64,000 nt of DNA from a phage: sequence record PV419677.1. One strand, 5' to 3'. Below, piece after piece: positions 2,870 through 52,330 of the stretch. The notes beneath the pieces were generated by a model, which made no database searches, was not told where the DNA came from, and saw nothing but the letters and a program-made list of their open reading frames with translations. Every line of letters begins with the position of its first letter. Position 1 is the first letter of the stretch. Both the position numbers and the translations under genes were made by a program.

Positions 2870-3814
2870 TTAATAAAATTCAGCAATATTTGCAGTTAGT
2901 TTAGACAGACCAGACTTAACAAAGTAAGGATAAACTTTACTTTTGGCTGGGATAACGTAGTTATTATATCGTTCTAAGATTGAAGCGGATATTTCCGCTG
3001 GGATAAAGTCCATATCAATCAACAATTGGTTTTCACAGAATCTATTATATTGCTCTTCTGTTAAAAGCGTTTTCAAAACGTCATGGTCGTAATAATTGAG
3101 TGCAATTTGTTCAAGCTCAGCAGCGCGGGTCGGTGGGGTGCGTTCACCTTCTTCACGAGTGTAATAAAAATCACCACGAACCTTGATGCTTGACACGTTA
3201 TCTTTTTTGTCACCTTTAACAACCTTTGTCACGCAATCCATAAGAGCATCGCCTGATTTAGTTTTGACATATTTTTTCTGCATCGGTGACCATTGTTTTA
3301 CCCCAGGGAATTTATGCAACTGGGTAAAGTCGCCATCCGAAGAAACAACCATAACCGGATGTCCGAGACCAGTGAGCAATTTCGTTAATACTGCAATATG
3401 GTCGTCAGCCTCAATTTTATCCATATTCATCACGATGTAAGGCATATGTTTTTCCATTTCATCAATGATGATATGCATGGCAGCGTGTAGACCTTCCCAA
3501 TCAAATTGTGACTCTTCACGAGCTTTTGCACGGTTTTTCTTATAATAATAAGATTTCGTGCGTCGCCAATAACCATTCTTCGAATTATCAACACAAATAA
3601 TTGGGACTGTATAACCGAGCTTTTTAAACTGTACAATGTTTTTTCTGATAGAGTTCAGAACCAGATGTCTGGTCATTGCGGTTGTCACCTTAGGGAAGCC
3701 CGCGTCTTTACCGAATTCCTGGAAGGCTGCTGCCATGATGAGCTGACTAAAATCGAGTAACTGAAAACCATCTTTTTGACGGTCTTCTTCAGGGAGTAAA
3801 AAATCTAAATTCAT
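2870..3814 (-). CDS. rnh: RNase H / 5'-3' exonuclease
   Basis: 314 aa; motifs YYKKNRAKAREES, SSDGDFTQLH as in T4 RNase H (305 aa). Confidence 0.9.
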   Translation of the reverse strand: MNLDFLLPEEDRQKDGFQLLDFSQLIMAAAFQEFGKDAGFPKVTTAMTRHLVLNSIRKNIVQFKKLGYTVPIICVDNSKNGYWRRTKSYYYKKNRAKAREESQFDWEGLHAAMHIIIDEMEKHMPYIVMNMDKIEADDHIAVLTKLLTGLGHPVMVVSSDGDFTQLHKFPGVKQWSPMQKKYVKTKSGDALMDCVTKVVKGDKKDNVSSIKVRGDFYYTREEGERTPPTRAAELEQIALNYYDHDVLKTLLTEEQYNRFCENQLLIDMDFIPAEISASILERYNNYVIPAKSKVYPYFVKSGLSKLTANIAEFY

Positions 3815-3871
3815 ATGAACCTCTGTTCAATTAGTTGACTCGATTATATTAGCATAAAATTTTTAAAGCAA

Positions 3872-3879
3872 TATAAATA
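3872..3879 (+). promoter_or_regulatory. late promoter (TATAAATA) for gene 34
   Basis: exact TATAAATA about 30 nt upstream of gp34 ATG. Confidence 0.6.
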
Positions 3880-3909
3880 CACGTATACCAATCAATAAGG
3901 ATAAAGCAC

Positions 3910-6900
3910 ATGGCCGATATTTTAAAACCAGCATTCAGAGCAACATCCGGTCTCGATGCGGCTGGTGAGAAAGTCATTAATGTCGCGAAAGCTGATTTCT
4001 CAGTTTTGTCAGACGGCGTTAACGTAGACTTCTTTATAGAAGAAAACACAATTCAACAATATGATGCAACACGCGGATATAAGAAAGATTTTGCAGTTAT
4101 CTATGATAACCGTATTTGGGTTTCCCAACGTGAAATCGCAGAACCAGCTGGCCCATTTGTTCAGCAATATTGGACCGCAACCCGTACTGACCCGAAATGG
4201 GAAACTGTTGCATCACCAACTCGTCAGCTTAGCTCCGGGGAATTTATCGCAGTCGACTCAGCTGCAAGCTTTACCACATTTACATTGCCTCCGAACCCGA
4301 CTGATGGTGATACCATCGTTATTAAAGATATCGGCGGTAATACCGGTTATAATGAAATTAAAATCCAGTCAAGCAACGTGCCTGGCCAAGGTAACCAAAA
4401 GATTGTTCGCTTTGGTAATCAGTATTCAGAAGTTTTAATTACCAAACCATTCTCTTATAACATGCTTATCTTTTCAAACCGCTTATGGCAATTTTGGGAA
4501 GCAGGTAACGAAGAACGTGGTATCAGAGTAGAACCGTCGACCGGACGTTTCCATGCACAAGCTGGCGACTTTATTATGCGTCGTTATACAACTGGTGCAC
4601 CGATTACTTTCATTCTTCCTAAGTATGCAAACCAGGGTGATATTGTCAAATCTGTTGATATCGATGGCATGGGGCCAACGTTCCACCTGATGGTTGAAAC
4701 CTTTGACACCAGTTCCAGTCTTGGTAAAGCTGGCCAGCATCAAATGGAATTCCGTACCACAGGTGATGGTTTCTTCGTTTATGATGCTGCCGAAAAACTC
4801 TGGCATGTTTGGGACGGTGATTTTAAAACTCGTCTTCGTGTTATTCGCGACAGCGTTAAACTTTTACCAAACGAAAGTGTCATTGTATTTGGCGAAGATA
4901 ACTCAACTCCGGCAACGATTAATATCGATTTACCAACGGATGTTTTGCAAGGCGATATTGTTAAGATTGCGCTGAACTATCTCCGTAAATCGCAGACTGT
5001 TAATATAAGAGCTGCTGTCGGCGATAAGATTGCAACTGACATTAAATTGCTGCAATTCCCTAAACGTTCCGAGTATCCACCAGATACAACTTGGGTGATG
5101 GTTGATTCATTGACCTTTAATGGCAACATCAGTTATACTCCGGTTATTGAATTATCATATGCAGAAGATGCAGTGTCTGGAACAAGTTATTGGGTTGTCG
5201 CTCAGAACGTCCCGACTGTCGAACGAGTTGACTCATTAAATGATTCCACGCGTACACGTCTTGGTGTTATTGCTCTGGCAAACCAGACTCAGGCAAACGT
5301 TGACCATGAAAATAACCCAGAGAAAGAACTCGCAATTACACCTCAGACTTTAGCCAACCGTGTTGCTAAAGAGAACCAACGAGGCATTGCCAGAATCGCA
5401 ACGACTGCCCAAGTAAATCAGAACAGTGATTTTGCATTTGTTGATGATGTAATTATTTCTCCGAAAAAACTCAATGAACGTACGGCAACAGAAACGAGAC
5501 GTGGGCTCGCAGAACTCGCCACACAGCAAGAAACCGATGCGGGTGTAGATGATACCACAATTATAACTCCAAAGAAACTGCAAGCTCGCCAGGGCTCAGA
5601 ATCGCTATCCGGTATTGTAACTTACGTTTCAACGACTGGTGCAACTCCTGCTGCTTCGCGTGAATTAAATGGTACAAACGTTTATAATAAAAATACGGTT
5701 AATCTGGTTGTTTCTCCGAAAGCTCTTGACCAGTACAAAGCTACTTACACCCAGCAAGGCGCGGTTATTCTTGCGGTTGAAAGTGAAGTAATCGCTGGTA
5801 CTTCTCAATCTGGCTGGGCAAACGCAGTCGTTACTCCAGAAATGTTGCATCGCAAAACTGCTCTTGATTCCCGTATCGGTTTAATCGAGATTGCTACTCA
5901 AGTTGAAACAGATGCAGGAACCGATTATACCAGAGCTGTGACTCCTAAAACGTTAAATGACCGTAAAGCATCAGAAACGTTAACCGGCATAGCCGAGATT
6001 GCTACGCAATCAGAATTTGATACTGGAACTGATGATACTCGTATCTCAACTCCATTAAAAATTAAAAATAGATTTAATAATACTGCTCGTACTTCTGTTA
6101 ATGCATTAAGTGGTTTAGTAGAAACAGGGACGCTCTGGGACCATTATAGCCTGAATATTCTTGAAGCAAATGAGACTCAGCGTGGCACAGCAAGATTAGC
6201 AACTCAGGGTGAAGTCAATACTGGCACTGACGATAAAACAATCGTTACTCCGCTTAAATTGATGTCGAAAAAAGCCACTGAAAACGCCGAAGGTATTGTT
6301 CGCATCGCGACAAACGCAGAAGCAACAGCAGGCACATCAAAAGTCTTGGCCATTAGTCCGTCTGCGCTGAAATATATTGCCCAAACGGAAACAACTTGGG
6401 AAGCATCTGAAACACTGCGTGGATTTGTTCGTTTATCTTCCGGTGCAGCTACTTCGGCCGCAACTACAACGACGGGCGCGGGATTTACATATGAAAATGG
6501 TGTGTATACCCCGGACCCAAGTAAACTGGTTAGCTATGCGAAATCTGGATATGCAGTTTCGCCTTACGAATTAAACCGCGTATTGCAAAACTTCTTACCG
6601 ATAAATGCGATGGCTGTTAATGCTGAAAAACTGGATAACCTCGATTCGACCCAGTTTATTCGTCGTGATATTGCTCAGACTGTTGAAGGTGTATTAACCC
6701 TTACTAAGCAGACAAATATCTCTGCTCCGGTTGTATCGACGAGCACTGCGGTGTTTACTGATGTAACGGCTGGTACTTCGACGTTCGGAACTGTGAATGT
6801 TGTTAATGGAACTAACAAGTGGAAAATCACTGCTCCTTCCGCCGGAACAACAATGACTATTGGCGATACGACTAACGTATTGACATTAAACACCGCCTCG

Positions 6901-46888: not shown

Positions 46889-47392
46889 TTAGTTAATACC
46901 TTGGCGTGCTTTCTCTTTAGCTACACATTTATTAATATAGCTCAGACGGTTTTGAGCAGAACGCTGATACATATCACGATACTCATTAGCTTTTGGAGAA
47001 CCAGCCTCTGCTGCCTGATAAGCTTCCGCGCGCATGATGTTTATCTGCATATTGATGTATGACATGCAGACCTGTGAAATCTGGTTAACAGTATCCAGGT
47101 CATTTTGGCGCTTGGTTTCTGCTTCCAGTTTAGCAATGATTTCGTCATGCTTCGCAGCTTGTTCGCGTTTGTACTCAATTTCACGTTGAGCATATTTCGC
47201 GCAGTTATTTCCACATTGATTGTTGTCGCGTTTGTAGATAAGTCCAGTACCACCTTTGAAATCAAAGGAACCATTATGCACCTGACGGTCTGCAGCAATT
47301 CGCGCTTTACCAATCTCATTGGCATTAACAACATCGCCCTGGTAAGCACAACCAGATAGCAGCATAACAGCTGCGATAGCTAACTTTTTCAT
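46889..47392 (-). CDS. putative lipoprotein
   Basis: 167 aa from ATG at 47392 (GAGGA Shine-Dalgarno); signal peptide with lipobox LSGC; occupies T4 beta-gt/42 slot. Confidence 0.6.
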   Translation of the reverse strand: MKKLAIAAVMLLSGCAYQGDVVNANEIGKARIAADRQVHNGSFDFKGGTGLIYKRDNNQCGNNCAKYAQREIEYKREQAAKHDEIIAKLEAETKRQNDLDTVNQISQVCMSYINMQINIMRAEAYQAAEAGSPKANEYRDMYQRSAQNRLSYINKCVAKEKARQGIN

Positions 47393-47402
47393 TGTATTTT
47401 CC

Positions 47403-47546
47403 TCAATTAAAACATTCATAGCGGGCTTGGAGTCCCAAAAATATCCAACCCAAAATTAAAGTTGGAGTCATATGTGGAGTCATTATTGCCCAATAGATTG
47501 ACATACTAAAAAATGCAATCAGTACAATAATTGTAATTATCTTCAT
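47403..47546 (-). CDS. small membrane protein (47 aa)
   Basis: ATG overlaps imm stop (ATGA); hydrophobic. Confidence 0.35.
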   Translation of the reverse strand: MKIITIIVLIAFFSMSIYWAIMTPHMTPTLILGWIFLGLQARYECFN

Positions 47547-47785
47547 TTGGTTTCCTTGATGATAATTACATGTGCATTTGATTTACGCTCAGCAACGAGT
47601 GCCCAGATAAATGCAATAAACCATCCGACCATTGTCCAACCTAACAGGAGGTTAACAAAGAAGATTCCGCAATTACTTTTGGTTCCTCGCAGTAGCGCGA
47701 TAATCCACGGCAGAAAATATGCCAGTGCAGCCAGGAAGAAAGAACCAGCACCAAGAACAACAGTACCTGCAATTAATGTTTCCAT
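47543..47785 (-). CDS. imm: superinfection immunity protein Imm
   Basis: 80 aa; two TM segments with YFLPWIIA...LLLGWTMVGWFIAFIWAL signature of Imm family. Confidence 0.8.
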   Translation of the reverse strand: METLIAGTVVLGAGSFFLAALAYFLPWIIALLRGTKSNCGIFFVNLLLGWTMVGWFIAFIWALVAERKSNAHVIIIKETK

Positions 47786-47805
47786 TTTAATATCCTTAAT
47801 TTAAT

Positions 47806-47856
47806 CATCAGTAGTTGATGGAGTAATCATACGGCAATCCTTTGCTGTTGTAAACA
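47806..47856 (-). promoter_or_regulatory. early promoter upstream of imm
   Basis: GTTTACA-N17-TATGAT and AUCAACUACUGAUGA leader. Confidence 0.5.
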
Positions 47857-47857
47857 C

Positions 47858-48864
47858 TTAAAAATCAAACATATCAAAAAGAGATGCTTTTTTCTCGTAA
47901 TCAACCTTAGCTGCTTCAGAGAACCCTGTTAACGGTTTGACAAAAGTCTTCTGGAACAGTGTGTTGTAGTCCATCCACTGCAAGACTTGGTCACGGATTT
48001 CAATCGGGAGTTCAATCCCAGATGGCCATGCAATCACGGTTTCACCAAACGGGTTGCCGACTTTAAGAGGAAGTACATACACCTTTTCCCCTTCCATGAT
48101 TTGTGGAACAGTCTTCAGACCTTTAGTTGCACGCATATATGCAAGCACACCTTTGATATGAGCCGGGCACTTAAATCCAGGGAAACCACCCTCATTATAT
48201 TTCTGAATGTTGTTAACCGATGATACACCTGCGATGGTCATGTAGTTAAGCTCATTAAATTCCTTATTGAATTCCTTGAAGTATGTCTGCAGAGATTCTT
48301 CACCTTCTTGCAGCATGCGACGGATACATTCTTTCAGAGCTTTCTGACATGCTTTTGGTGTGCTCGACTTTTGAGTTTCCAGACCCATGATTTTCAGTTT
48401 CGGAACAGCATATCGTGTGCCTTCCATATCGTACACATTCAGAGCATAACGCTTCTTCGCTGTCCAGAATCCACCAACACCTTTAGAACCAAGCGGAGGA
48501 CATGCAATCGCTTCACGGTCCATAAACATAAGGTGCTGTTTGTTGTTCATGTATTCAGCCAGTTCACGGAAAGCTTTATCGATTGCCGGTTCCAGACGGT
48601 CTTTCGCAAACTTGTCCATGAAGTCAACCAGGTGGTTTGTATCGCGGAATTTCGATTCGCCACCAACCTTTTTAATCAGGTTATCGCACTGGATATAAAT
48701 GGAGTCAGTATCGCCATAGAATACATATGTTTCACCACTTGTACCACAAACACTATCAAAATATTCGTTAACTTTACGCTCAATCCACTGCAATGCAAGT
48801 TGTCCGAAAGATGTAATCGCGGTTGCATTTCGCAGGTCAAAGTAACGGAACCAGATATTTCCCA
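47858..48864 (-). CDS. 43: DNA polymerase gp43, subunit 43B exon 2 (motif C YGDTDS to C-terminus)
   Basis: frame begins GNIWFRYFDLRNATAI..., contains YGDTDS; collinear with T4 gp43 residues about 560-898. Confidence 0.8.
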
Positions 48865-49095
48865 CAATTTTGTTCAGTTGAAGTCGTTAATTTCAACCCG
48901 GAATTATATCCAGCTGCATGTTGCCATGCAGAGCAGACTATATCATCATCTTTCGATGCCATGCGCTTCCAGCCACTTGGCTGTACTCCTTTCGGATAGT
49001 CGTTGCACGTTCCTATAATAGGCTTCGCTCAGGATTGTCTCATAGAGATGTCCCCTGAATTCACATGGTTTAAAGTGCGCCGGAATACTTGGTTA
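48865..49095 (-). mobile_element. candidate ORF-less group I self-splicing intron in gene 43
   Basis: 231 nt between ...CYGA/L and GNIW...; P1 (exon GUGCGU : intron GCGCAC, U.G at splice site), P7 (GACUA / UAGUC within GAUAUAGUC), GNRA hairpin, terminal G; splicing restores frame. Confidence 0.55.
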
Positions 49096-49267
49096 ACGCA
49101 CCATAACAACTGTTGATAAGCAATTTGCGGTTAATCTGTGCAGTATTTGCCGCAATTTCTGCCATTTGCGAATTATGCAAATGACTTTCCAAATCCGCCC
49201 TTGATAATGTTTTTAAATATGCAATTTGCGAATCATCAAAATCTATATTATAATCAATATTCATCAT
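49096..49267 (-). CDS. 43: DNA polymerase gp43, subunit 43B exon 1 (motif B region)
   Basis: MMNIDYN...NRKLLINSCYGA matches T4 gp43 around KILINSLYGALG; ATG overlaps stop of the homing endonuclease gene. Confidence 0.7.
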
Positions 49268-50082
49268 TTATTCCTACAGTTATCAAAATGCCAACGTTTC
49301 ATGCCTGCTAATATACCTTCTTTTCCACAATGTGGACAAACTGCTTTAACCTCTTTTGCTTGTTTCCAATATTCCTTTCTGGCATCAGAAATAGCTTGAT
49401 TGTGTTCATCTGAATTTTTGTGTCCCAATCTGGTTTTAACGATATCTGGATTTTTAGCAACACGTTCTTTCATAAACTCAGATTTCGCTGCACGCATTTC
49501 TGGTGTCCAGGCATCGGAGCATTTTTGTTTGTGGTCGTCGGATATAGTTCCATTTTTCAGCACAGACTCATTGTTCTTATAATGTTCAATTAAACTTTGT
49601 GAACGTTTTTGACAAGTTTCTACCGAGTGTTTTGTTCCAGTATTTTTAATTGAGGCGATTTTAAAATTATCAATTGAAATTTTATTGTAATAATCTGGAT
49701 TTTGGGCCCGGGTATATTTGATACTATCGGAAACCTTTTTGGCAACTACTGGATTATGCATCGCATTTGGTAAATTTAAAGAATTGACATAATCCCACCC
49801 ACCTTTACCACCTGGGGTTAAATTATATGTGTCAGTACGTGTGATAAATTCATTATCAACTAATTTGGCTTCAAGTGCATATGCATCATCTTCGTTATCA
49901 AATTCAGCAATGATTGATTTGACCAGGTTATGCTTGCCATATTTTTCTTTCGCAGCTTTCACAATGGGACCCGAACCCAGATAATCATCCAACAAATTAT
50001 AAGATTCACATTTATGAACTCCAATGTAAATCTTATCGTTCACTAAATTTTTAATTTGATAAACAGTGTATACATTTTTCAT
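49264..50082 (-). CDS. GIY-YIG homing endonuclease inserted in gene 43
   Basis: 272 aa; VYTVYQIKNLVNDKIYIGV GIY-YIG motif, NLTPGGKGG, C-terminal zinc finger CPHCGKEGILAGMKRWHFDNC. Confidence 0.8.
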   Translation of the reverse strand: MKNVYTVYQIKNLVNDKIYIGVHKCESYNLLDDYLGSGPIVKAAKEKYGKHNLVKSIIAEFDNEDDAYALEAKLVDNEFITRTDTYNLTPGGKGGWDYVNSLNLPNAMHNPVVAKKVSDSIKYTRAQNPDYYNKISIDNFKIASIKNTGTKHSVETCQKRSQSLIEHYKNNESVLKNGTISDDHKQKCSDAWTPEMRAAKSEFMKERVAKNPDIVKTRLGHKNSDEHNQAISDARKEYWKQAKEVKAVCPHCGKEGILAGMKRWHFDNCRNK

Positions 50083-50094
50083 AATGTCTCCTTA

Positions 50095-50135
50095 ATTTAA
50101 AAATATTTTAGCGCGCTTCCTTGCGCTTGTACAAC
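50095..50135 (-). promoter_or_regulatory. promoter-like element for homing endonuclease gene
   Basis: minus strand GTTGTACA...TAAAAT then GGAGA Shine-Dalgarno inside 53-nt spacer between 43A stop and endonuclease ATG. Confidence 0.35.
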
Positions 50136-51659
50136 TTAAAGATGGTTTAAAAGGTCTTTAATCAATTCACTATTACGTTGTGCCGCCAACATCTTTTTCT
50201 TTTCGGTTTTTCGTTGATTAAAAACTTTCTCAACTTCTGTCGGAATAATACCTGCAACATCTTTAAAATACATCATGCCATTTGGAGCACAACTAAATGT
50301 ATCAGATGGACGGTCAGCAGTTCCTGCGATGTATTCATACATCGGCGCAGGAGCAAATGAACCGGCAATCGTTTCTGGACTGATGTTAATCTGTCGGATG
50401 ATGCTCGGATACAGAGATGTCAAGTCACAGCTCATAACGTATTTGTATGCGTTCGGAATCGGTTCCTTAACAAATGCACCAGGGAATGATTGACGAACAT
50501 GCGATTTGGTTTCCGGAATGACTTTGTTTTGAGTCTTCAGGCTGTTAAAGATAATCGCATCCCAAGTTTTGATTGGGCTGAATACAGACTGAATCTGCAT
50601 TTTTGCGTAATAACCCATTGACTGGCTAAGGTTAATAAACTGGCGCTTACGGTCAATCTGTACAACACGATAAACATCGATGATGTTATAAGAAATATAC
50701 CGTTGGTGATTTGATTCACGCAGTTTAGAAATCGGACCATCATACGGGAGTTTACCAACACCCAGCTCAGATTCCGCAACATAATCCAACGAATAAGACG
50801 GTTGGTTTGTGAAGCTGAACTTTTTATACAGGTCCAGATAATCCAGAACAGAGATACCCAGAATCTGAATGATTTCTTGTTCTTCACCAAAGCCGTTGTT
50901 AATTACTTTAACTTTTGTACGACGATGTGGGCTCAGACGTTTTGCTGTGGCTTCACCAAATACATTTTTAAGGCGGTTGTAGATATACGGAATATCAAAC
51001 TTCTCGATGTTCCAACCAGTTAACATAACCGGAGTTTTCTCGTTCCAGAATACCAAATACTGCTGGAGCATTTCTTCTTCTGAATCGAAAGCCATATAAA
51101 CAATTTTTTCCAGGATTTCTTCAGGGACTTCATCGCCGCCATCTTCTTGCAGCTTGGCAGCAATATCAATAGACCATTGCTCCACAGTGGCGTATGGTGA
51201 GCTCAAAAGGTCAAAGACATAGAATTTATCGTCTACCGAATCATAGTGCGTCAGGGCATCAATAGGGTGACGTGCTTCAGACGGCTCAGGGAACCCATCC
51301 GGAGATGTCACCTCGATATCGAAGTTAGCCACACGGATTTTACTTGAATCGTATTTGATTTCGTGTGGATAACGGTCGGACAAGTATGCGAGTTTAAAGT
51401 CATCCATACCCATAGCTTCGAGACCCATGTCATTCATTCGCTTCATCCACTGGGATGCATCACGCATGGAATCGAATTCTTTTTTCACACAACCTTTATT
51501 ATAGATGTCTGTATACTTTGCAGCCTGGTCTTCGCGAGCATGCATAAACAAGCATGGAGCATAAGGGATTTCACGAACACGTTCATGACCATTCTTGTCA
51601 ATGTATCGTTCAAGCAGATTGTCACCGATTTGTTCGATAGTTAAATAAAATTCTTGCAT
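50136..51659 (-). CDS. 43: DNA polymerase gp43, subunit 43A (exonuclease and palm motif A)
   Basis: 507 aa; collinear with T4 gp43 N-terminal about 510 residues incl. FDIEVT, SLYPSIIRQ; ends with stop before the motif B region. Confidence 0.9.
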   Translation of the reverse strand: MQEFYLTIEQIGDNLLERYIDKNGHERVREIPYAPCLFMHAREDQAAKYTDIYNKGCVKKEFDSMRDASQWMKRMNDMGLEAMGMDDFKLAYLSDRYPHEIKYDSSKIRVANFDIEVTSPDGFPEPSEARHPIDALTHYDSVDDKFYVFDLLSSPYATVEQWSIDIAAKLQEDGGDEVPEEILEKIVYMAFDSEEEMLQQYLVFWNEKTPVMLTGWNIEKFDIPYIYNRLKNVFGEATAKRLSPHRRTKVKVINNGFGEEQEIIQILGISVLDYLDLYKKFSFTNQPSYSLDYVAESELGVGKLPYDGPISKLRESNHQRYISYNIIDVYRVVQIDRKRQFINLSQSMGYYAKMQIQSVFSPIKTWDAIIFNSLKTQNKVIPETKSHVRQSFPGAFVKEPIPNAYKYVMSCDLTSLYPSIIRQINISPETIAGSFAPAPMYEYIAGTADRPSDTFSCAPNGMMYFKDVAGIIPTEVEKVFNQRKTEKKKMLAAQRNSELIKDLLNHL

Positions 51660-51720
51660 TTGGTTTCCTTTATAGTCGAGTGATTGACTTTTGTTTTATG
51701 ACTTGATGTTATTATACTAC

Positions 51721-51742
51721 AAAAGGGACCGAAGTCCCTTTG
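51721..51742 (-). terminator. putative terminator hairpin
   Basis: GGGAC-UUCG-GUCCC hairpin with short U-run upstream of gene 43. Confidence 0.4.
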
Positions 51743-51744
51743 CT

Positions 51745-51972
51745 TTAAATTTCTATTGTACGTCGTTCGATGGTTGGATTACCCTTTTCATCTTTAGTTC
51801 TAACCATAGCCTGGAAGACTCTCTGTCCAGGATGCAATAATTTCTTGAGTTCCTTTTGAAATTCTATTTGAAGTTCTTCGGAAAGGTCAAAAATAGTTTG
51901 ATTTGGGGAAAGTCCATATATTTCTTTAAGGCGTTCGCATGTTTCAATTTCATGCTTCATATCAATTACCAA
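51745..51972 (-). CDS. hypothetical protein
   Basis: 75 aa between regA and 43. Confidence 0.45.
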   Translation of the reverse strand: MVIDMKHEIETCERLKEIYGLSPNQTIFDLSEELQIEFQKELKKLLHPGQRVFQAMVRTKDEKGNPTIERRTIEI

Positions 51973-52330
51973 TTGTGTATTTGGCTACAAGCTTCCAGTC
52001 GTCTTTTTGTTTAAAGGAGATAACACGGAAGTTGTTTGTTACTGCGAACAATTCATTATGCTCTTCTTCTTTGATAGTGATTAAGCCCCAGTCTTCGAGC
52101 AGTTGAGCAATGGAATCACGGCGCTGATAGTCTTCACCATCAATATCCACCTGGCGACCATCCATGCGCAGCATTTCTTTGAAGTGAACAATATAATAAC
52201 GGCCTTGCTTCTGGAGGATGTGGCAGCTCTGGTACAGCACACGGTCTTTATTATTTGCGATGCCCATACGGGTCAGAGTTTCTTTAACTTTCAGGAAGTC
52301 TTCAGGTTGCTTTAATGTAATTTCAATCAT
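51962..52330 (-). CDS. regA: translational repressor RegA
   Basis: 122 aa, same length as T4 RegA; near-identical to recalled sequence. Confidence 0.9.
   Translation of the reverse strand: MIEITLKQPEDFLKVKETLTRMGIANNKDRVLYQSCHILQKQGRYYIVHFKEMLRMDGRQVDIDGEDYQRRDSIAQLLEDWGLITIKEEEHNELFAVTNNFRVISFKQKDDWKLVAKYTIGN

Follow-up and report, generated by a model that had tools for sequence, protein, structure and literature searches.

Organization of the gene 43 locus

The window analyzed here, a 64,000-nt stretch of phage DNA (sequence record PV419677.1) from a Gaprivervirus-like coliphage, carries an interrupted DNA polymerase gene 43 on its minus strand, the parts of which are listed in Table 1. 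The first cistron, 43A, encodes the N-terminal portion of a PolB-type DNA polymerase, with Pfam matches to DNA_pol_B_exo1 (4e-26) and DNA_pol_B (3e-14), and shares 98% amino acid identity with residues 1-506 of the gp43 of Escherichia phage EAWsc9 (Gaprivervirus). The nearest deposited relatives, of which EAWsc9 is an example, are 96-97% identical to the window and encode a single, uninterrupted gp43 of 904 aa. In the window, 43A is followed by an untranslated spacer, by a free-standing gene for a Seg-like GIY-YIG homing endonuclease and by a second polymerase cistron, 43B, whose two exons flank a predicted ORF-less group I intron lying 172 nt downstream of the endonuclease gene. The termini created by the split of the polymerase (43A ends in ...AAQRNSELIKDLLNHL and 43B begins with MMNIDYNIDFDD...) were aligned with the corresponding ends in Escherichia phage vB_EcoM_G2285 and Aeromonas salmonicida phage 25 (phage 25 below), and the sequence AGGA is found 4 nt upstream of the ATG of 43B.

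Table 1. Coordinates of the gene 43 features, the predicted intron elements and the transferred block in the window.
Feature	Coordinates	Strand	Description
Cistron 43A, N-terminal PolB-type DNA polymerase	50136..51659	-	507 aa; exonuclease domain and start of polymerase domain
Untranslated spacer, 43A to endonuclease gene	50083..50135	-	53 nt; AAGGAG 6 nt upstream of ATG
Seg-like GIY-YIG homing endonuclease gene, free-standing	49264..50082	-	272 aa
43B exon 1	49096..49267	-	172 nt (57 codons + 1 nt); ends in ...INSCYGA + U of Leu codon
Predicted group I intron, ORF-less, subgroup IA type	48865..49095	-	231 nt
43B exon 2	47858..48864	-	1007 nt, stop counted
65-aa ORF	49070..49267	-	exon 1 plus gap residues; from the ORF list
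335-aa ORF, C-terminal polymerase	47858..48865	-	from the ORF list; Pfam family B DNA polymerase
Transferred block	48846..50252	-	43A tail, spacer, endonuclease gene, exon 1, intron, <=19 nt of exon 2
P1	49102-49096 with 49080-49074	-	GGUGCGU / GCGCACU, U.G at splice site
P3	49068-49062 with 48965-48959	-	
P4	49058-49053 with 49034-49029	-	
P5	49048-49045 with 49041-49038	-	
P6	49028-49026 with 49007-49005	-	
P6a	49022-49012	-	
P7	49001-48997 with 48940-48936	-	GACUA / UAGUC
P7.1	48996-48987	-	UCC-GAAA-GGA
P7.2	48983-48970	-	CAGCC-AAGU-GGCUG
P8	48958-48947	-	
P9	48931-48914	-	GCAA tetraloop
P9.1	48913-48898	-	
P9.2	48897-48877	-	
P10	48864-48860 with 49085-49081	-	exon 2 UGGGA with intron
Terminal G (omega G)	48865	-	

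The endonuclease gives a marginal match to the Pfam GIY-YIG family (PF01541; 23.0 bits against a cut-off of 22.6, residues 5-76), presents the residues VYQI...KIYIGV, followed later by E (YALEAK) and N (YNLTPGG), and has homologues annotated as GIY-YIG or Seg-like. Over its full length, it shares 62.5% amino acid identity with the endonuclease of G2285, 45.6% with that of phiAS4 and 39.5% with that of phage 25, all of which are encoded at the same position in gene 43. The stop codon of the endonuclease gene overlaps the start codon of 43B in the sequence ATGA (window 49264-49267), suggesting that translation of gp43B is coupled to that of the endonuclease gene. In G2285 this overlap amounts to one base (endonuclease gene 2885-3706, 43B from 3706), and in phiAS4 and phage 25 a gap of 2 nt separates the endonuclease gene from 43B. 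A very stable hairpin has been reported upstream of the phage 25 endonuclease gene, seg43(25), whereas a search for its counterpart upstream of the endonuclease gene in the window returned only a 5-bp stem that was not significant (z -0.74). The T4 late-promoter motif TATAAATA was not found near the cassette.

Boundaries of the interruption in 43B

The initial annotation had proposed that the polymerase frame is broken after ...NRKLLINSCYGA and resumes with GNIWFRYFDLRNATA in the ORF at 48865..47858, and that joining 49096 to 48864 produces a stop-free 43B of 392 aa, next to a 43A of 507 aa; both proposals were borne out. Read without splicing, the frame of the 65-aa ORF continues from ...NRKLLINSCYGA into eight residues encoded by the gap and terminates at a UAA (49072..49070), and the 335-aa ORF opens at 48865 with (V)GNIWFRYFDLRNATA. 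Removal of the 231 nt joins GCGU to UGGGA and restores ...LLINSCYGALGNIWFRYFDL..., as in the uninterrupted gp43 of EAWsc9. In the predicted spliced RNA, ...UAUGGUGCGU is followed directly by UGGGAAAUAUC..., and the peptide SCYGALGNIWFR spans the splice junction of the 392-aa gp43B. The intron-less insertion site of the EAWsc9 type reads ...TGTTATGGCGCTCTGGGTAATATC..., also given as ...AACAGTTGTTATGGCGCTCTGGGTAATATCTGG....

DNA homology between EAWsc9 and the window ends at 49098 and is back at 48864, from which point exon 2 shows 98.1% DNA identity starting at base 1. Furthermore, alignment with the intron-less gene 43 of relatives, which the initial annotation had put forward as a check, revealed that the spliced protein is gap-free over the junction and that the proposed splice sites are exact. 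The limits of EAWsc9 homology and the gap-free spliced alignment thus assign the intron to 49095..48865. Moving both splice sites by 1 nt would generate the same mRNA, and only the choice made here combines an exon ending in U with an intron ending in G. The insertion point falls between nucleotides 1 and 2 of the Leu codon in YGA-L-GN, inside polymerase motif B (KxxxNSxYG-A/L-GN, with the slash marking the insertion point). As claimed from the first inspection of the sequence, the intron contains no ORF, and an in-frame UAA lies at 49072-49070.

Covariance-model match and predicted intron fold

The covariance-model scan called for by the initial annotation was strongly positive and supports its reading of the interruption as a group I intron. 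Rfam family RF00028 (Intron_gpI), whose gathering score is 50, matched with 81.4 bits, the E-value being 2.7e-20 when the region was scanned and 3.9e-19 when the search took in the whole window. The match extends over the full model (1-253), is the sole Rfam family match in the 64 kb and outscores that of the phage 25 intron, an intron on record as self-splicing, which reaches 64.2 bits. Its coordinates (49127..48914) depart from those of the intron because the model places the variable P1 into the exon and omits the P9.1 and P9.2 hairpins and the 3' tail. No other intron or structured RNA was detected with Rfam over 47500..52000 (E-values up to 1) or, at the gathering score, over the whole window.

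A second intron was also considered as the cause of the break between 43A and 43B, and was rejected on the lack of any further Rfam match in 47500..52000; the break is read as a true cistron split, like that of phage 25.

The unconstrained minimum free energy fold of the intron (-73.2 kcal/mol, z -2.4) yields P3, P4, P5, P6, P6a, P7.1, P7.2, P8, P9, P9.1 and P9.2, together with a P10-like pairing, and the addition of P1 and the P3/P7 pseudoknot generates a complete P1-P10 group I model with 71 pairs. The group I hallmarks listed at the outset could all be located: GUGCGU (49101..49096) pairs with GCGCAC at intron nucleotides 16-21, placing the U.G pair of P1 at the splice site, and the sequence also contains the GACUA and UAGUC halves of P7, the element GAUAUAGUC, a GCAA tetraloop (in P9) and the terminal G. 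The P1 and P7 pairings noted there fit the complete fold, with compensatory changes in homologous introns. The core P3-P8, with the P3/P7 pseudoknot and the J8/7-P7 element (GAUAUAGUC), is complete. The presence of P7.1 and P7.2 hairpins between P7 and the 3' strand of P3 places the intron in subgroup IA; the narrower IA2 label is the annotation of a homologue, the GenBank record of phage 25 describing its 43B as 'split by group IA2 intron'.

Covariation was analyzed in six gene 43 introns (window, G2285, PSD2002, phiAS4, phage 25 and Aes508), using as controls pairing partners slid by 1-3 columns and 500 shuffles. Standard pairs occupy 91.3% of the cells in the six introns, compared to 35-46% with slid partners, and 20 pairs are doubly changed, compared to 2-3 with slid partners; none of the 500 shuffles matched the observed values. 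P3 and P7.2 are paired in 100% of cases, with 3 and 2 doubly changed pairs, respectively, and compensatory changes are seen in P6a, P7.2, P9 and P9.2. P4 and P7 are also 100% paired, and they provide zero covariation evidence because they are invariant across the six introns. P1 covaries with the exon, two of its pairs having switched in the phiAS4 lineage (UA to AU, GC to UA), and its U.G pair is invariant in all six.

The automatic alignment gives 48% pairing for P10, a value affected by a mis-registration of one column at the 3' end; checked sequence by sequence, P10 comprises five consecutive pairs in each of the six introns, with compensatory differences among them, and an A at exon 2 position +5 that is specific to the window is matched by a U of the guide region. 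The terminal G is found in all six introns, each of which presents an in-frame UAA inside its first 26 nt, and the window intron is gene-free.

Related cassettes and other states of gene 43

The same intron was identified at the same site in the Escherichia phages G2285 and PSD2002 and in the Aeromonas phages phiAS4, Aes508, Aes5xx and phage 25. The gene 43 layout of the phage 25 type (43A, endonuclease and intron-split 43B) was described by Petrov, Ratnayaka and Karam (2010, J Mol Biol 395:457), who are reported to have shown experimentally that the phage 25 intron splices itself and that the endonuclease cleaves 43B sites free of the intron. The GenBank record of phage 25 annotates 43A, a GIY-YIG endonuclease and a 43B with a group IA2 intron. 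Phage 25, phiAS4 and Aes508 share with the window the order of the parts (43A, spacer, GIY-YIG gene, exon 1, ORF-less intron, exon 2), the insertion point in the Leu codon of YGA-L-GN and the split point of the polymerase. In the phage 25 and phiAS4 copies, the endonuclease is 39.5-45.6% identical to that of the window at the amino acid level and the intron about 71% identical at the nucleotide level. The two groups differ in host lineage, the phage 25 group consisting of Aeromonas Tulanevirus members, and in intron length: the window intron measures 231 nt, compared to 347 nt in phage 25 and 278 nt in phiAS4, and is without the long P6 and P7.1 extensions. The window intron is one part of a three-part cassette, together with the GIY-YIG endonuclease gene and the 43A/43B split, and this kind of element is already known: it is a gene 43 cassette of the phage 25 type, here in a coliphage lineage.

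According to reviews, the phage 25 intron (Intron 25.g43B) is a fourth group I intron in T4-related phages; it contains no endonuclease gene, and the prediction is that it relies on the free-standing endonuclease, named seg43(25). The same reviews state that gp43A and gp43B of phage 25 co-purify with polymerase activity, and they class the phage 25 case as collaborative homing, with an endonuclease targeting the insertion site.

Two deposited coliphages present variants of this arrangement. Escherichia phage G2285 (MK327933, Mosigvirus) harbors the same three-part cassette, with an intron 89.6% and an endonuclease 62.5% identical to those of the window; it belongs to another genus, and its cassette is a diverged variant rather than the donor of the window copy. 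The G2285 record states that its submitters were 'unable to determine intron/exon boundaries', which we assigned by homology (L001:1309-5110): 43A at 1309-2829 (506 aa), the endonuclease gene at 2885-3706, and 43B with exon 1 at 3706-3874, the intron at 3875-4106 and exon 2 at 4107-5110. Escherichia phage PSD2002 (OK335775, Dhakavirus) carries the same-site intron (89.1% identical to that of the window) but, unlike the window, has neither a 43A/43B split nor an endonuclease gene. Its record (L003:1793-4734) lists two separate 'DNA polymerase' CDSs and does not annotate the intron. These CDSs are the exons of one gene; the group I intron between them measures 230 nt (L003 3501-3730) and scores 75.9 bits with Rfam, and splicing would generate a gp43 of 903 aa. 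The cassette is found on Gaprivervirus-like backbones (the window) and in diverged form in Mosigvirus, and the intron alone in Dhakavirus. A literature search for discussion of the coliphage intron, as found in G2285, returned nothing relevant.

Among metagenomic contigs with distant endonuclease homologues, two (L011 and L012) contain the endonuclease gene and exon 1 together with the first part of the intron, and one (L010) combines the split and the endonuclease gene with an uninterrupted 43B. A further T4-like contig (L009:4859-4890; ENA ERZ27315649 k141_205687) carries 43A and a 48% identical endonuclease gene without an intron, and an additional 11 nt (GCGTGACCCGG) interrupt its 43B frame at precisely the position where the intron is inserted elsewhere; there, stop and start codons overlap in the sequence GTGA and a 325-aa ORF begins. 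These 11 nt could be an error of assembly, the scar of repair or intron loss, or a second point, in motif B, at which the polymerase is split; since the frame is broken there in the absence of the intron, a split at the motif B site might be tolerated in some phage.

The 43B of Aes508 (JN377894, L006:3310-5798) contains, in addition to its intron, an annotated split intein with an inserted ORF encoding a VSR-like endonuclease domain. The co-occurrence of an intron and a split intein in this 43B indicates that gene 43 is a hotspot for several kinds of mobile elements.

The window intron also resembles the td, nrdB and nrdD (sunY) introns of T4, which are likewise group I introns with P7.1/P7.2 in DNA metabolism genes of a T4-type phage, and which present an early in-frame stop past the 5' splice site. 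In contrast, the T4 introns contain endonuclease genes (I-TevI, II and III), whereas the window intron has none and is much shorter. Collaborative homing systems comparable to the one considered here comprise the DNA polymerase intron and free-standing endonuclease of T3/T7-like phages (Bonocora and Shub 2009), the psbA intron of cyanophage S-PM2 with F-CphI (Zeng et al. 2009) and the terminase intron of ICP1 with a T5orf172 gene (Barth et al. 2023). These three systems differ from the gene 43 cassette in that they involve other host genes or polymerase families and other endonuclease families, and no endonuclease-linked gene split.

Lateral transfer of the cassette

The cassette variant of the window is not present in the deposited phage collection, where the best match to its endonuclease is the 62.5% identical protein; an identical endonuclease protein is encoded on six contigs from run and metagenome assemblies. 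Two of these six cassette-bearing contigs (L007/L008) were used as the comparison strain. Relative to this strain, the block at 50252..48846 contains 3 mismatches in 1407 nt, compared to 114 differences in 2395 nt (4.8%), nearly all of them silent, in the gene 43 flanks (Poisson P 4e-25). Along the locus, identity to the window rises from 93.0% in the upstream genes and 95.7% in 43A to 100% in the 43A tail, 98.1% in the spacer, 99.8% in the endonuclease gene and 100% in both 43B exon 1 and the intron, and falls to 94.3% in the first 300 nt of exon 2. The comparison of the window with the intron-less EAWsc9 shows dense divergence from 50232 to 48860.

The combination of a near-identical block with diverged flanks indicates that the whole cassette, together with the polymerase-coding termini that flank the split, was transferred as one unit between backbones differing by about 5%; this 1.4-kb block clearly bears the marks of a recent lateral passage among related coliphages. 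These sequence comparisons show that the intron and the endonuclease gene were co-transferred in one block, which does not in itself identify the initiator of the transfer. Transfer as one unit is as expected under collaborative homing, and the right edge of the block, located 5-19 nt past the intron insertion site, sits where donor-templated repair of a double-strand break at that site would leave it. The block could also have been exchanged between the two backbones by ordinary recombination, without homing initiated by the endonuclease. A different pattern is seen between G2285 and PSD2002, whose introns are 96.5% identical and whose exons are 71-85% identical; this likeness fits short conversion tracts carrying the intron alone.

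Directly downstream of gene 43, the region at 46891-47857 shows 74.7% identity to L007 and 98.5% identity to EAWsc9, and contains small membrane-protein-like ORFs, including a homologue of Imm-type superinfection immunity proteins. This region is a second, independent mosaic boundary beside the polymerase gene.

Proposed mechanism and alternative explanations

The analysis shows the fold and its covariation, the exact boundaries, the homology of every part to the phage 25 cassette and the en-bloc transfer. It is very probable, judging from the sequence and the modeled structure, that 49095..48865 is a functional ORF-less group I intron whose self-splicing yields a 392-aa gp43B. The transcript would fold into the P1-P9 core, and an external guanosine would attack the bond that follows the U (window 49096) of the U.G pair in P1. 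The internal guide sequence would hold the freed exon while P10 positions exon 2, and ligation of the exons after the terminal G (48865) would then produce the mRNA for gp43B. Homology and structure suggest that this protein would assemble with the 507-aa gp43A into an active polymerase. We propose with lower confidence that the adjacent endonuclease drives the spread of the intron by collaborative homing. Its probable targets are gene 43 alleles without the intron, cut at the insertion site or close to it, and repair off a cassette-bearing genome would copy all three parts (intron, endonuclease gene and split) at once.

The main alternative is a decayed intron that no longer splices, with a polymerase made in three pieces (43A, a 65-aa fragment whose last residues are encoded by the intron, and a 335-aa polypeptide starting at GTG 48865). 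The 65-aa and 335-aa ORFs are both mechanically present, and the metagenomic contig whose 43B frame is broken by 11 nt and a GTGA overlap at the same, intron-less site implies that a three-piece polymerase may exist somewhere. For the window, we nevertheless deem this explanation highly improbable. All of the core helices are intact, the phage 25 intron has the lower Rfam score of the two, a strain with flanks about 5% divergent carries a 100% identical copy of the intron, and P1 and P10 have stayed complementary to the exons of this phage, including the pairing of the window-specific A (+5) with U. Moreover, no Shine-Dalgarno sequence lies upstream of GTG 48865 and the break falls within catalytic motif B, making the production of separate 65-aa and 335-aa polypeptides unlikely. 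Nor can we lend any appreciable credence to the gap being an assembly or sequencing artefact, or a case of translational bypassing like that of T4 gene 60, in favor of which there is only the reading-frame gap itself. Both are refuted by the presence of the same cassette on six contigs from independent samples and by the match of the gap to a high-scoring structured RNA (RF00028), and the homologues in deposited isolate genomes also argue against an artefact. To our knowledge, 231 nt far exceeds all known bypass lengths.

A functional, self-splicing intron is also compatible with an adjacent endonuclease that plays no role in its spread, the block having been exchanged by ordinary homologous recombination during co-infection. 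The elements do occur apart, with the intron alone in PSD2002 and the endonuclease and split without the intron in one metagenomic contig (L010). We consider an endonuclease without such a role unlikely, although less so than a non-splicing intron. On its right side the block ends 5-19 nt past the insertion site, as a double-strand break there predicts, the three-part arrangement has been kept from Aeromonas to Escherichia phages despite endonuclease identities of 40-46%, and the reviews class phage 25 as collaborative homing by an endonuclease aimed at the insertion site. A broader claim, to which we assign an even chance, is that the 1.4-kb block is a currently active composite mobile element in natural populations of Escherichia T4-like phages, sharing ancestry with the phage 25 cassette.

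Implications

With regard to annotation, the 65-aa and 335-aa ORFs should be replaced by a single 392-aa gp43B, join(49267..49096, 48864..47858) on the minus strand, and the same repair applies to the G2285 and PSD2002 records. To a kind of element already known, the present analysis adds exact boundaries and clear sequence evidence for the movement of the cassette as a unit. The window phage and its relatives constitute a natural series of four states of gene 43: uninterrupted, with the intron only, with the split and endonuclease only, and with the full cassette. Given these four states and the sharply bounded tract, easily grown coliphages could serve to test the mobilization of an ORF-less intron by a free-standing endonuclease, and equally to ask how an essential polymerase tolerates splitting.

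A 2010 review considered that convincing evidence was lacking for crossing between host-genus clusters of T4-related phages. If the block is indeed an active composite element, it would provide population-level evidence for collaborative homing in nature, and it would mean that such cassettes cross between these clusters and that every transfer turns an intact polymerase gene into a split one.
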